Source: Bacteroidota bacterium (GTDB taxonomy: Bacteria > Bacteroidota > Ignavibacteria > UBA10030). From it: 64,000 nucleotides of DNA. Position numbers and translations under genes: made by a program. The DNA lies in assembly GCA_041695085.1 (NCBI GenBank), contig JBGFRO010000047.1:10080-74079 (forward strand). The letters are read 5' to 3'. Of this stretch, positions 6,122 to 9,909 are shown in pieces (position 1 is the first letter of the stretch; each line of letters starts with the position of its first letter). The notes under the pieces are model-generated. The model saw only the letters and a program-made list of their open reading frames with translations. It did no database searches and was not told the origin of the DNA.

Positions 6122-6373
6122 TCAGCCTTCATCGTTTGGCTCTTCTCCGAAATCGGTTCCGAGTATTTCCCGCGCACGCTCTGCATCACTTTTGTTGACG
6201 AGGACTTTCGTTGCACCGACGCCGCCCGGAGACGTCTGGAACGGGGCGATTGTTCCCATCAGCTCATCTGTCAACATTGCTTCCACTCCGCCGGCGTGAA
6301 GGGCATTTTTGGCGAGATGTGCCTCAACCGGATTCCCTCTGAACACGACAACAAGCCTTTCTTCTTTTCCCAT
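6122..6373 (-). CDS. DUF2007-like small protein (putative signal-transducing protein)
   Basis: The 83-aa ORF starts LVVVFRGNPVEAHLAKNALHAGGVEAMLTDE, which resembles DUF2007. It is the last gene of the LytSR operon. Confidence 0.5.
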   Translation of the reverse strand: MGKEERLVVVFRGNPVEAHLAKNALHAGGVEAMLTDELMGTIAPFQTSPGGVGATKVLVNKSDAERAREILGTDFGEEPNDEG

Positions 6374-6402
6374 GGCCCGATCCTTTCAGGTCTGCAAGAC
6401 GT

Positions 6403-6717
6403 TTACTCGACGACGACCGCCGTTCCGCTGGCGCTCACCATCAACATGCTTGATCCGATCGTTTCATAATCCAGATCGATGCCGATGATGGCGTTGGCGC
6501 CGAGCAAACGTGCTTCGTTGCGCATTTCTTCGAGGGCGATTTCTTTCGCTCGACGCAGTTCTTTCTCATACGCTCCCGATCGTCCGCCGACGATATCGGT
6601 GATGCGTGCAAAGACATCGCGGAAGATATTGGCTCCGAGGATCGCTTCGCCGGTAACGAGACCGGCGTACGTAACAATCTTCTTGCCGTCGATGAGTGCT
6701 GTGGTGGTGGTCAGCAT
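6403..6717 (-). CDS. YbjQ/UPF0145 family protein
   Basis: The protein [54 protein letters not shown]... fits YbjQ. The start was moved from the ORF-track codon to the internal ATG, whose complement is 6715-6717. Confidence 0.65.
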
Positions 6718-6844
6718 AGGTGATCTTCTCCCGTTCTTTGGTTGTATGATGTTTTTTTCCTCATGTCGAACCACACTCGCTCCCCTTCAAATTTCTTCTT
6801 TGATGGATCCCACGGAAACAGAAGCCCGGAGACCCGCGAAGGAG

Positions 6845-7585
6845 TCATAGACGAGCTTTCAGTTTTTCGTATCCGCTCCGGCTTACCTGAAGTTGTGTGC
6901 CGTCTTTCAAGATGGCCATCCTGCTGTCCTTGGCGTACAGCTCGATGCGGGCGAGGTAATCGAGGTTGAGAATGTAGGAGCGGTGGATGCGCACGAAGCG
7001 TGCATTGTCCAGTTGCTCCTCCACTTCCGAAAGCCGCTGTTGTTTGAGATGCTTCTTGCCTTTGGTGACAAAAGCGACGTAATCGTCTTGCGCTTCAACG
7101 TATTCGATTTGATCGACCGGGATCACGTGCACTTGGGAACCGTTCCGAATCAGAACGCGCTGAAGCGGTTTCTCCCGTTGTCGCACAGAGTGAACAAGCT
7201 GATCGAGCACCTTCGAGTCACGGCCCTGGAGTCGTTGTCGCACCAACCGCATCGTCTCGGCAAAGCGCTCCTTCGTGAATGGTTTGAGCAAGTAATCGAC
7301 GGCATGCACGTTGAATGCCTGCAGCGCATACTGATCGTATGCCGTGACGAAGACGACGGCGAGATCGTGCGGGATCAGTTCCAACACCTCAAACCCGCTC
7401 AGCTTCGGCATCTGGATATCGAGGAAGACGAGATCGGGCTTGAGTTCTATGATGTTTCTTACAGCATCGAACCCGTTCGCACACTCTGCAGCGATCTCCA
7501 CATCCGGATACTCCGCGAGGTACTCGCGCAGAAGTGTTCGTGCAAGTTCTTCGTCGTCAACAAGGATCGCTTGAATCGTCGTCAT
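6845..7585 (-). CDS. LytTR/AlgR family response regulator
   Basis: The REC domain motifs are ILVDDEELAR, LVFLDIQMP and LLKPF. The C-terminal LytTR domain reads VHVIPVDQIEYVEAQDDYVAF...FVRIHRSYILNL. Confidence 0.85.
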   Translation of the reverse strand: MTTIQAILVDDEELARTLLREYLAEYPDVEIAAECANGFDAVRNIIELKPDLVFLDIQMPKLSGFEVLELIPHDLAVVFVTAYDQYALQAFNVHAVDYLLKPFTKERFAETMRLVRQRLQGRDSKVLDQLVHSVRQREKPLQRVLIRNGSQVHVIPVDQIEYVEAQDDYVAFVTKGKKHLKQQRLSEVEEQLDNARFVRIHRSYILNLDYLARIELYAKDSRMAILKDGTQLQVSRSGYEKLKARL

Positions 7586-7609
7586 TGTGAGGGAGAAAGG
7601 AACGTTGCT

Positions 7610-8665
7610 TTACTTGCGGACGGGGAAAGTTACAGAAACCTTGAATCGAGTTCCATCGGAATTTGCGGAGAGGACGCCGTCGGTGCCGTAGAGCGTGTGA
7701 AGCCGCTTTCGGACGTTCTCAAGTCCGACGCCGGTACCTCTGCTCAGCGGCGTATCGGGATCGACCGGATTCTCAACAACGACATTCAATAGTCTGCCGT
7801 TCGCATCGGTCGAAAGCTTTATCGTTCCTCCCTCCAGAAGGTGTGCAACGCCGTGCCGGATGGCGTTTTCCACGAGCGGTTGCAGAAGAAGGGGAGGGAT
7901 GCGGGTCTGGAGCGCAGTGTCAGAAATATGCTCTTCAAACTTGAGTCGTGCCCCAAACCGTACCTTTTCGATGTCGAGAAACATCCGGATGAGGGTGAGT
8001 TCTTCCTCGAGCGTGATGAACTCCTGCGCGCCCAATTTCAAGCTGGTGCGAAAGAAATCCGCGAGCTTAATCGTCATATCACGCGCCGCCTTCGGATTTT
8101 GCATCGTGAGGGCGCTGATGGAGTTCAGACTATTGAACAGAAAGTGGGGATCGATCTGTGCGCGGAGGGCACGGAGTTCGGCGTCTTGAGCGAGAACTTT
8201 CATTTGGAACGATCGGCGCTCTGCATCGCGCGACTCCTCGAAAGCGACAATCAAATAATCGATTGCAACAGCAAGCAAATAAAGCAGCATGCCGATTCCG
8301 AACAACAGGCGTGTCTCGACGATGGGACGTGAAGACGGGACGTTGAACACTCCGCTCTGTATCAACACCCAGCTCCAAATACTGCTCAGGAGTACCCAAA
8401 TGGAGCTGGAGATGGCTGCGGAGAGAAGGAAGACTGTGAGGAGACGCATCGTGTCGGTTTTCTGCAACGGGAATGCGCGGCAGAGATACCACCCTGAAAG
8501 ACAGATAAAGGCATAGACGAAAGAGATCGGGAGCGAGAACGCGAAGCCCAGCGGCCACGCTTGCTCCCCCGGAACGACGATGAGCGCCGAGAGGAGGAGA
8601 GCGATCAACAGCCAGGCGACAAGGTAGACGAGGAGTTTTTGTGTGTCCGCTAAGATTGGGTGCAT
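7610..8665 (-). CDS. LytS/YehU-type sensor histidine kinase
   Basis: About 140 aa of N-terminal TM helices are followed by the His_kinase box RAQIDPHFLFNSLNSISAL and an HATPase_c domain (ENAIRHG...GTGVGLENVRKRL). Confidence 0.8.
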   Translation of the reverse strand: MHPILADTQKLLVYLVAWLLIALLLSALIVVPGEQAWPLGFAFSLPISFVYAFICLSGWYLCRAFPLQKTDTMRLLTVFLLSAAISSSIWVLLSSIWSWVLIQSGVFNVPSSRPIVETRLLFGIGMLLYLLAVAIDYLIVAFEESRDAERRSFQMKVLAQDAELRALRAQIDPHFLFNSLNSISALTMQNPKAARDMTIKLADFFRTSLKLGAQEFITLEEELTLIRMFLDIEKVRFGARLKFEEHISDTALQTRIPPLLLQPLVENAIRHGVAHLLEGGTIKLSTDANGRLLNVVVENPVDPDTPLSRGTGVGLENVRKRLHTLYGTDGVLSANSDGTRFKVSVTFPVRK

Positions 8666-8822
8666 GGAATCGATTCCAACGCAAGTTGCAAGATCATCCG
8701 ACGGCGGTGCGGTGTGGAGATCATCATATCAGAACGGGGTTTCGCGCGAACAACGTCTACGTTCATTGTTCAAGGATTCGAAACAAATGATGCAAAGATG
8801 CAAGGGGTAAAATTTCTATCAG

Positions 8823-9527
8823 CTAATTGCTGATATCTGCTCCACCCATAATCGCGTACCCTCGAATGATGAGGGTCTTACCGCTGTTTGGGTTAGCGCG
8901 AGACGTGCGGTCTTCGATGCCGCCGAGAAGCGGGATGGCCTGGACGTTGACGTTCCAGTCTTGTGGAACGCGGATCTCAATCCCCCCCCAGAAAGCAAAA
9001 ATCTCCAACACAGCTTCGCTGTTCTTCATGGATGCACCGCGGAGGTCGAGTTCTACGCCTCCCATGATTGCTGTCACCTCACCGCCGCGAAAATCTGAAG
9101 ATGTGTTGGAGCGTTTCAAGCCGCTCATCATCACGAAATCCTTAATCTCCGGACGCGGCTCGGCAGCTCCGGAGGTCTTGACCTCCGCCGTTCGCTTCTG
9201 TTGATCGAGCGATCTCCACATCATGCTCATGCCAAGCAGGATGAGAAAAACGGGCCAGAGATCCCACACGCGGAAATCGAGGATGTGCAATTTCTCAAGC
9301 ATAAAGAGGACGCCGATGACCAGCACGACCACTCCCCAAGCGCGGCCGGGTGTGTGCTCAGATTGGACGATCTTGGCCACGCCGTAGATGATGAGAAGGG
9401 CAGGCCAATAGCGAAACAGGTCACGAGCTTCGATGAGATCCAGATTATCCAGCGTGAACAGCACGCCGACGATAATGACCAGGATTCCCAAAACGAATTG
9501 CGGCCCAAATTGAATTCTAGTTTCCAT
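8823..9527 (-). CDS. LiaF/YvqF-like membrane protein
   Basis: N-terminal paired TM hairpins are rich in W/ILI/G. The C-terminal beta domain reads FRGGEVTAIMGGVELDLRGASM...FAFWGGIEIRVPQDW...LLGGIEDR, typical of the LiaF C-terminal (DUF2154-like) domain. The start is at ATG 9527 (METRIQF). Confidence 0.6.
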   Translation of the reverse strand: METRIQFGPQFVLGILVIIVGVLFTLDNLDLIEARDLFRYWPALLIIYGVAKIVQSEHTPGRAWGVVVLVIGVLFMLEKLHILDFRVWDLWPVFLILLGMSMMWRSLDQQKRTAEVKTSGAAEPRPEIKDFVMMSGLKRSNTSSDFRGGEVTAIMGGVELDLRGASMKNSEAVLEIFAFWGGIEIRVPQDWNVNVQAIPLLGGIEDRTSRANPNSGKTLIIRGYAIMGGADISN

Positions 9528-9909
9528 TGCCCTTCTCCTGTGCGAGACGGTGATGCGATTCCTTGACGAAGCTGTTCCAGAGAATACTGATCCCCCAGGC
9601 AACGATTAACAACGGCCAGGTGTCCCGAAAACCCAAGTCCCAAACTTGATTGAACGAGACATGCAGCCACAGTCCGAGAAAAATCCACCAAACTCCTTCA
9701 CCAATTTTCGTCCAGCGATTGACCTGCAGAACTTTATGGATGCCGAGAGCCACAAGGATGAAGGGCCACAACCGCCAGACGGGTCCGAGATCGAGCAGGT
9801 CGAAGTTGTGAAGGAGCAGAAGCAAACCTCCTCCGATAAGCAGAAGAGAGAAGAAGATTTGCGTTCCAGTTTGTAGTTGTTGCTTCGTCGTCATTGTGGT
9901 CTCCTGCAA
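9517..9909 (-). CDS. small 4-TM membrane protein resembling the LiaI/LiaF N-terminal module
   Basis: Two W-rich TM hairpins are present (LWPFILVALGIHKVL and WPLLIVAWGISILW). The gene overlaps the downstream LiaF-like gene by 11 nt. Confidence 0.5.
   Translation of the reverse strand: MQETTMTTKQQLQTGTQIFFSLLLIGGGLLLLLHNFDLLDLGPVWRLWPFILVALGIHKVLQVNRWTKIGEGVWWIFLGLWLHVSFNQVWDLGFRDTWPLLIVAWGISILWNSFVKESHHRLAQEKGNGN

Follow-up and report, generated by a model that had tools for sequence, protein, structure and literature searches.

In the Firmicutes, the Lia and Vra systems serve as the reference for the sensing of envelope stress and the response to antibiotics, and the manner in which LiaF-type proteins communicate with their partners is still unsettled. 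The kinases LiaS and VraS are of the HisKA_3 type with a HAMP linker, and the output domain of the regulators LiaR and VraR is of the NarL/GerE type. In these systems a LiaF-type protein, made up of a LiaI-LiaF-TM domain (TM, transmembrane) and a Toastrack domain, is encoded directly upstream of a kinase without an extracytoplasmic sensor, and LiaF and VraT act as kinase partners (Ravi et al., 2024, PMC11237479, cited here and below for the portion available to us). A second group, the LytTR Regulatory Systems (LRS), includes HdrRM, BrsRM and the LRS-like operons of Bacteroides, and couples a DUF2154/LiaF-C membrane protein to a LytTR regulator without a kinase (Zou et al., 2018, PMC6193735). 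Here we describe a conserved four-gene unit on the minus strand of a 64-kb stretch of Bacteroidota DNA (hereafter the window, whose numbering is used for all coordinates except those given with a locus name), in which LiaI-like and LiaF-like membrane proteins are encoded together with a LytS/AlgZ-type histidine kinase and a LytTR response regulator. We interpret it as a self-contained, positively autoregulated membrane-signalling operon in which a Lia-like sensor has been rewired to an AlgZR-type phosphorelay, a reading to which we assign a probability of about 0.6.

An earlier note on this DNA had proposed a six-gene minus-strand operon at 6122-9909. All six open reading frames (ORFs), designated g1 to g6 in 5' to 3' order on the minus strand, were present, and every domain call was backed by Pfam.

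g1: ORF 9517-9909, likely 9517-9894, minus strand; small LiaI-like protein with four TM helices, 125 amino acids (aa) from ATG
g2: 8823-9527 from ATG, minus strand; LiaF-like protein, 234 aa, with a four-TM LiaI-LiaF-TM domain and a C-terminal Toastrack (LiaF-like_C) domain
g2-g3 spacer: 8666-8822, minus strand; 157 nucleotides (nt), atypical for the family, in which the usual gap is 3 nt
g3: 7610-8665, minus strand; histidine kinase, 351 aa, AlgZ/LytS type (PF06580), four TM helices
g4: 6845-7585, minus strand; response regulator, 246 aa, receiver domain (REC) and LytTR DNA-binding domain
g5: 6403-6717, minus strand; YbjQ/UPF0145 protein, 104 aa from ATG, YbjQ_1 match of 130 bits; adjacent gene outside the conserved module
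g6: 6122-6373, minus strand; DUF2007 protein, 83 aa; stays paired with YbjQ, outside the conserved module

According to these coordinates g1 and g2 overlap by 11 nt, and the intervals are 157 nt for g2-g3, 24 nt for g3-g4, 29 nt for g5-g6 and 127 nt for g4-g5 (70 nt if g5 starts at the GTG at 6774). The 11-nt overlap and the 157-nt maximum that had been reported were thereby recovered, while a gap of 0 nt, also reported, was not found. The start of g1 is likely the ATG at 9894, because the sequence AGGAG (the Shine-Dalgarno element, 9905-9901) lies 6 nt upstream and the Joint Genome Institute (JGI) called the same start, with a product of 125 aa, on its identical metagenome contig, which is 172 kb long and matches the window; the TTG-extended ORF reaches 9909.

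Both membrane proteins matched LiaI/LiaF-type TM profiles in Pfam, as had been anticipated. LiaI-LiaF-like_TM1 (PF18917) and LiaF-TM (PF22570) scored 39.8 and 37.1 bits in g1, and 81.7 bits (two matches) and 68.3 bits in g2. The small protein is a paralogue of the g2 membrane domain, as evidenced by 29% identity to the N-terminal half of g2 (E 5e-15). The C-terminal domain of g2, on which the earlier note had let its interpretation stand or fall, held in the profile search, with LiaF-like_C (PF09922, DUF2154/Toastrack) at 32.5 bits, above the gathering cut-off of 29. A structure model of g2 generated from an alignment of 25 homologues (mean predicted local distance difference test score, 75) is helical as far as residue 116 and forms an all-beta domain at residues 127-233, which points to a Toastrack fold at the C-terminus. 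Application of the positive-inside rule predicted that this domain faces the cytoplasm.

The kinase g3 matched His_kinase (PF06580) with 93.3 bits; its HATPase_c match (23.7 bits) remained just below the cut-off of 26.4. By hydropathy, residues 4-145 contain four hydrophobic TM stretches with short loops between them. No Pfam sensor domain was found in this N-terminal membrane region (residues 1-150), and neither HisKA_3 nor HAMP was matched in g3 at E <= 0.1 in Pfam. The H box (PHFLFN), the N box (LQPl.ENA..HG) and the G box (G.Gl.nv..Rl) are conserved in 72 orthologues. In g4, Response_reg scored 79.6 bits and LytTR (PF04397) 89.5 bits, and the residues conserved in 61 orthologues comprise (i) the DDE acidic pocket, (ii) LD.QMP with the predicted phospho-acceptor Asp, (iii) the Lys of LLKP and (iv) FvR.HRS within the LytTR domain. 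Judged by these residues, the g3-g4 phosphorelay looks functional. PDB sequence searches with g4 and g3 returned generic receiver domains and one kinase fragment (6swj), and no informative relative.

The comparison with LiaFSR and VraTSR is a divided one. As in those systems, a LiaF-type protein that carries a LiaI-LiaF-TM domain and a Toastrack domain is encoded directly upstream of a kinase lacking an extracytoplasmic sensor; as in those that include LiaI, a small LiaI-like 4-TM paralogue heads the operon, for which autoregulation is predicted here. Unlike LiaS and VraS, however, the kinase is of the PF06580 (LytS/AlgZ) type with four TM helices and has no HisKA_3 or HAMP, and the regulator is REC-LytTR, whereas LiaR is given as REC-wHTH by Ravi et al. 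(PMC11237479). The NCBIfam NarL profile did match g4, at residues 5-138 only, which are the receiver domain and linker, leaving the output domain uncovered. Further differences are that no PspA/LiaH or LiaG was found near the module in the local DNA searched, that the hosts belong to Gram-negative phyla, and that the score of g2 falls far short of the cut-off set for the LiaF equivalog in NCBIfam. The module has the LiaF-TM plus LiaF-like_C architecture, but it departs from what defines LiaFSR in the type of its kinase and in that of its regulator.

LytS and BtsS possess a sensor module consisting of a 5TMR-LYT membrane domain and a GAF domain. The core of the LytS/LytTR family (AlgZR, BtsSR, YpdAB, LytSR), a PF06580 kinase with an adjacent REC-LytTR regulator, is shared by the g3-g4 pair, but g3, with only 351 aa and no Pfam sensor domain, lacks that module and resembles AlgZ (PMC4064291). 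The resemblance to AlgZ(FimS)/AlgR of Pseudomonas aeruginosa includes the kinase length of ~350 aa (358 aa in AlgZ), the four N-terminal TM helices (within the first 150 residues of AlgZ; PMC4064291), the PF06580 domain and the REC-LytTR regulator. Several g3 homologues were named 'AlgZ' by JGI, BtsR was the best NCBIfam match of g4, and a half-site of the promoter repeat described below, CCGTTC(A/G)CC, is one base off the AlgR core CCGTTCGTC (PMC4064291). All of this would suit a nutrient or metabolite sensor comparable to the pyruvate-related BtsS/BtsR-YpdA/YpdB, or a surface/pilus regulator comparable to AlgZ/AlgR, with no relation to envelope stress. We regard such a function as very improbable. 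The BtsR match (184.7 bits) falls under its equivalog cut-off of 246, as does that of LytR (129.3 bits, cut-off 375), so that orthology with either is not indicated, and BtsS is a 7-TM pyruvate receptor (PMC10653868, available portion), whereas the membrane region of g3 has no Pfam sensor domain. In addition, no transporter or pilus genes are conserved beside the module. AlgZR, BtsSR and LytSR are not known to have a LiaF-like or LiaI-like partner, and the lack of a LiaF-like one counts against the metabolite or pilus function as well. The AlgR sites themselves also differ, being scattered single 9-mers (PMC4064291), whereas the window carries a pair at fixed 21-bp phasing beside a -35-like element.

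To learn how widely this arrangement occurs, we took the best 80 of 556 relatives from a one-genome-per-species scan with g2, a protein with more than 2,380 homologues at E <= 1e-5. The 80 genomes were labelled Ignavibacteria-type (23), Bacteroidota (21), Chlorobi (2), Acidobacteriota (23), Burkholderiales (5), Eisenbacteria (1) or were unclassified (5); the genomes nearest to the window were Ignavibacteria and Bacteroidota metagenome-assembled genomes with ~65% protein identity, and Undibacterium sp. WLX3042 and Massilia consociata CCM 7792, both of them cultured, are among the Burkholderiales carriers. We used the proteins of the window to search the ORFs at every locus, and a locus was considered informative when at least 2.3 kb were available downstream of the LiaF-like gene (n=70). 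In 66 of these 70, a PF06580-type kinase gene followed by a REC-LytTR regulator gene came next after the LiaF-like gene on the same strand; one further locus (L086) has the same pair and was missed only through an over-extended kinase ORF, and three LiaF-like loci (L041, L051 and L055) are without the kinase. Between the LiaF-like and kinase genes the median gap was 6 nt, with the mode at 3 nt. In 61 of 77 genomes the LiaF-like gene was immediately preceded by a LiaI-like one. Conversely, when loci were chosen by the kinase (46-51% identity), all four had the LiaF-like gene directly upstream and the LytTR regulator gene downstream. The wiring proposed in the earlier note, a LiaI-/LiaF-like pair joined to a PF06580 kinase and a LytTR regulator instead of a NarL-type pair, was accordingly borne out, and it extends over at least four phyla. 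In one of the kinase-chosen loci (L209, 6171-7790) an inserted gene for a trehalase-like glycoside hydrolase separates the kinase gene from that of the LytTR regulator.

The proposed six-gene operon, on the other hand, had to be reduced: co-conservation was confirmed for g1-g4 and was not seen for g5 and g6, which were found near the module in 5 of the 80 genomes (YbjQ in three, DUF2007 in two). The closest relative (88% identity) has two inserted genes, one for SnoaL and one for CNNM/CorC, between the regulator gene and the YbjQ-DUF2007 pair. We therefore rejected YbjQ and DUF2007 as components of the module. Because they are rare near it and separated from it in the closest relative, and because no other widely conserved partner was detected, the conserved unit is one of four genes, with YbjQ and DUF2007 as neighbours in the lineage of the window. 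Clustering of all neighbouring ORFs identified no conserved output gene beside the module and only lineage-restricted synteny.

A direct repeat, followed by promoter-like elements, lies upstream of g1; the repeat came to light when the sequences preceding this gene were aligned among close relatives.

Direct repeat: 9958-9989, minus strand; CCATTCACCGA (9989-9979), 10-nt spacer, CCGTCTACCGA (9968-9958); predicted site of a LytTR dimer
Promoter core, predicted: 9922-9950, minus strand; -35-like GCAACT (9950-9945), 17-nt spacer, -10-like TATCTT (9927-9922), conserved G at 9928

All loci were searched with the pattern CCGTTCACCGA-N10-CCGTTCGCCGA, allowing <=3 substitutions per half. The repeat was present upstream of the module in 57-58 of the 80 genomes, as compared with ~0.4 expected: 57 matches lay, with strand taken into account, within 950 nt upstream of the LiaF-like gene and 18 elsewhere in 1 Mb on both strands, and Markov shuffles produced 10.6 matches per whole set, equivalent to ~0.4 in the upstream region. 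Among the 22 loci without a strict match, six carry degenerate pairs, five of which are at the 21-bp spacing, and the repeat is missing from two of the kinase-less loci, L041 and L055, which have no regulator either. When 60 orthologous upstream sites were aligned without gaps, G..AC and, after 17 nt, GTATnTT stood at a fixed distance from the repeats; the two 11-bp repeats are phased by 21 bp and end 7 nt upstream of the weak -35-like element. A simple scan of the intergenic regions for sigma-70 consensus promoters and terminators yielded nothing useful and missed the predicted g1 promoter, which fits a weak, activator-dependent -35. The layout in the window, with its ~21-bp phasing, agrees with published descriptions of LytTR-regulated promoters, the 11-bp repeats of LRS-like operons among them (PMC6193735). 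The repeat pair thus looks like a site for the LytTR regulator, and its position, together with the promoter-like elements, upstream of the LiaI-like gene leads us to infer positive autoregulation of g1-g4.

The same promoter bears on whether g1 and g2 belong to the sensing machinery at all. Both are the first genes behind the predicted regulator-dependent promoter, no other conserved target gene is found near the module, and in Bacillus subtilis liaI heads the liaIHGFSR operon under the control of LiaRS (Ravi et al., PMC11237479). The LiaI-like and LiaF-like proteins might hence be membrane-protective outputs only, in the way liaIH is an output of LiaR, with the 4-TM kinase sensing on its own. 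This is a lesser rival, and we consider it rather unlikely, as is the metabolite or pilus function discussed above, which is likewise a lesser one. Near-obligate adjacency and a 3-nt spacing to the kinase gene across phyla are more typical of the subunits of one complex, and all the characterised Toastrack/LiaF-type proteins cited in PMC6193735 and in the available portion of PMC11237479 act in signalling.

We accordingly favour the rewired Lia-like operon, for which the following sequence of events can be envisaged. Having no extracytoplasmic domain, the g3 kinase would be an intramembrane sensor, unable to sense conditions outside the membrane by itself. The LiaF-like protein, which would be co-translated with it, perhaps together with its LiaI-like paralogue, would report perturbation of the cytoplasmic membrane or envelope, and, by analogy with LiaF-LiaS and VraT-VraS, would set the balance between kinase and phosphatase activities of g3. 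Once activated, g3 would phosphorylate the REC-LytTR regulator g4, a dimer of which would occupy the pair of 11-bp repeats preceding the weak -35 and activate the whole operon; sensor, regulator and modulator would then rise together, giving positive feedback with a built-in brake, and the LiaI-like protein would accumulate as a candidate membrane effector. The action of the LiaF-like protein on the kinase, the sign of this action, the membrane or envelope stimulus and the role of the LiaI-like protein are all our suggestions, and the 'envelope stress or autolysis control' of the earlier note is likewise a suggestion drawn from homology.

Several observations weigh against this interpretation. 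First, the NCBIfam LiaF_C_term profile gave g2 24 bits against a cut-off of 57; being so far below this equivalog cut-off, g2 is no orthologue of LiaF in the strict sense. Second, no PspA/LiaH-type effector was detected in the window or in 84 related loci when the local DNA was searched with a single E. coli PspA sequence, which is a weak negative. Third, the 157-nt gap between g2 and g3 may leave room for an internal promoter in the window. This spacer carries a tandem TTGCATC-TTTGCATC, and only its kinase-proximal ~130 nt align with the 88% relative, which has an extra 81-aa ORF at this position (L004, 8783-9028) with weak zinc-ribbon matches below the Pfam cut-offs. Fourth, the repeat is not confined to the module. 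An exact-pattern scan of metagenome contigs identified at least 120 loci, of which 101 had enough downstream sequence; among the matches listed, the repeat stood just upstream of a LiaI-like/LiaF-like module in 49 of these 101 informative loci, about half, which speaks for the operon reading, and the remaining matches listed were tandem repeats in coding sequence, minisatellite-like arrays with units of 10-11 bp and what look like true promoters of other genes. Since unrelated genes, namely those for TAP-like hydrolases, an ABC ATPase, a DUF2807 protein and an Omp85 protein, also follow the repeat, either the half-site is common to a wider group of LytTR regulators or the hydrolase and other genes belong to the regulon; the repeat alone does not tie the site to g4.

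The loci behind these other matches can be described as follows. At eight of them the repeat lies upstream of homologous secreted TAP-like alpha/beta hydrolases (S33-type, ~485-530 aa), and several of the eight also have a weakly receiver-like ORF in divergent orientation. At others (L135, L137 and L151/L196) it precedes genes for an ABC-transporter ATPase, a secreted protein of the DUF2807 (Toastrack) family and an Omp85-like outer-membrane protein. Seven loci contain intergenic minisatellite-like arrays of ACCGTTCACCGATT(ACCGATT) units with many tandem half-site matches, and seven more contain 21-bp tandem repeats (GAGGGTGACGTCCCGTTCGCC and variants), mostly inside long ORFs, which would encode 7-residue peptide repeats and match the motif by chance. 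An attempt to define the regulon by the exact repeat in metagenomes was given up, the motif being too unspecific without whole genomes. Within the window, the repeat at 9958-9989 is the sole match at the stringency used, and no other regulon member was identified there by this route.

The main rival to the rewired Lia-like operon comes from the LRS, with which the window unit shares several features. In both, there is a genetic link between a DUF2154/LiaF-C membrane protein and a LytTR regulator (PMC6193735), direct repeats of ~11 bp lie upstream of the operon, and autoregulation occurs in LRS and is predicted for the window operon; as in the LRS-like operons of Bacteroides, moreover, the gene for the membrane protein precedes that for the regulator. 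It is possible, albeit with a low probability, that the LiaF-like protein holds the LytTR regulator inactive at the membrane, as HdrM does with HdrR in Streptococcus mutans, and that the kinase provides a second, separate input. [quoted passage not shown] A LytTR protein is also encoded beside LiaI-LiaF-TM+Toastrack without a kinase in Firmicutes (Ravi et al., 2024, PMC11237479), and here a cytoplasmic location is predicted for the Toastrack domain as well as for the regulator. LRS regulators, however, have no receiver domain and LRS have no kinase, whereas the window encodes a complete phosphorelay, with conserved catalytic residues and a receiver domain, between the membrane protein and the LytTR output; the defining LRS features are thus absent. 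The presence of the kinase in nearly all informative loci, usually 3 nt after the LiaF-like gene, favours a pairing of the LiaF-like protein with the kinase, although contacts of the LiaF-like protein with kinase and regulator could coexist. A more speculative form of such coexistence, which we rate as unlikely, would be a widespread Gram-negative Lia-like sensor of membrane or envelope integrity in Ignavibacteriota, Bacteroidota, Acidobacteriota and some Burkholderiales, in which the Toastrack protein acts on the LytTR regulator in two ways, via the kinase and by sequestering the regulator directly, and whose regulon takes in the secreted hydrolases and outer-membrane proteins that have the same repeat. 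If this two-level control were true, the system would be a true hybrid of LiaFSR-type two-component signalling and the kinase-less LRS.

With regard to novelty, the earlier note had called the locus an uncharacterised variant. This is upheld insofar as no experimental study was found, but the general association had already been recorded (Ravi et al., 2024, PMC11237479), and the DUF2154 membrane protein HdrM had been reported as an inhibitor of a LytTR regulator (Zou et al., 2018, PMC6193735). In the available portion of Ravi et al., Ignavibacterium album IALB_0443 and Saccharophagus degradans Sde_3902 are entered with the neighbourhood 'LiaI-LiaF-TM+Toastrack -> HISKIN -> REC+wHTH', and two Firmicutes with 'LytTR -> LiaI-LiaF-TM+Toastrack', without a kinase. 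The former neighbourhoods are like the window in having a LiaI-LiaF-TM+Toastrack protein, a TM kinase and a receiver-domain regulator, and one of them is from the Ignavibacteriae, the group closest to the window; they are unlike it in that the regulator is labelled REC+wHTH and LytTR is given for the kinase-less Firmicute pairs only, IALB_0443 being compared by its table entry. Neither the identity of the PF06580/LytTR pair, nor the breadth over Acidobacteriota and Burkholderiales, nor the promoter repeat is mentioned in that portion of the work. What appears to be new here is the PF06580/LytTR identity, the near-obligate coupling across Gram-negative phyla and the conserved predicted operator.

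The module is a compact four-gene relative of Lia with thousands of sequenced members in Gram-negative phyla of soil, sediment and freshwater, in which the same accessory proteins are paired with a different kinase and a different DNA-binding chemistry. Because cultured bacteria carry it, at the least Undibacterium sp. WLX3042 and M. consociata CCM 7792, the question of whether the Toastrack protein targets the kinase or the LytTR regulator is testable, and the sharply defined predicted operator/promoter could serve directly as a reporter. The module also offers a functional lead for many genes that are annotated only as 'predicted membrane protein' or 'AlgZ'.

A few features of the window and of related loci remain to be recorded. 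For g6, Pfam DUF2007 scored 37.8 bits, and the 48.8 bits of NCBIfam DUF2007_rel stayed under the cut-off of 55. At 4425-5726 on the minus strand, 395 nt downstream of the DUF2007 gene, lies a gene for a secreted S8 peptidase, subtilisin-like and with a propeptide of the Inhibitor_I9 family; it keeps the same position in close relatives of the window, and no repeat motif was found upstream of it. An Rfam search of 5500-10700 gave no match above threshold, and a match to the Zeta-pan small RNA at 6860-6914 on the minus strand, inside the 3' end of g4 (26.6 bits against a gathering cut-off of 56.7, E 0.11), is most likely due to chance. In 8-9 Acidobacteriota loci besides L035 (7903-11792), genes for TetR, an HlyD-type membrane-fusion protein and an outer-membrane efflux protein (OEP) are located directly downstream of the regulator; this set could be a lineage-specific output or only synteny. 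On the upstream side, a MobA/MocA-like NTP_transf_3 gene (10009-10608, minus strand) ends 20 nt before the repeat and is directly upstream of the module in 17 loci, and genes for OsmC, an M3 oligopeptidase, XdhC and molybdopterin-binding dehydrogenases continue to ~13061. Upstream synteny comprising the MobA-like gene, the M3 peptidase and XdhC was observed in 12-18 loci, the clade of the window included, and probably reflects lineage synteny in Ignavibacteria/Bacteroidota rather than a functional link.

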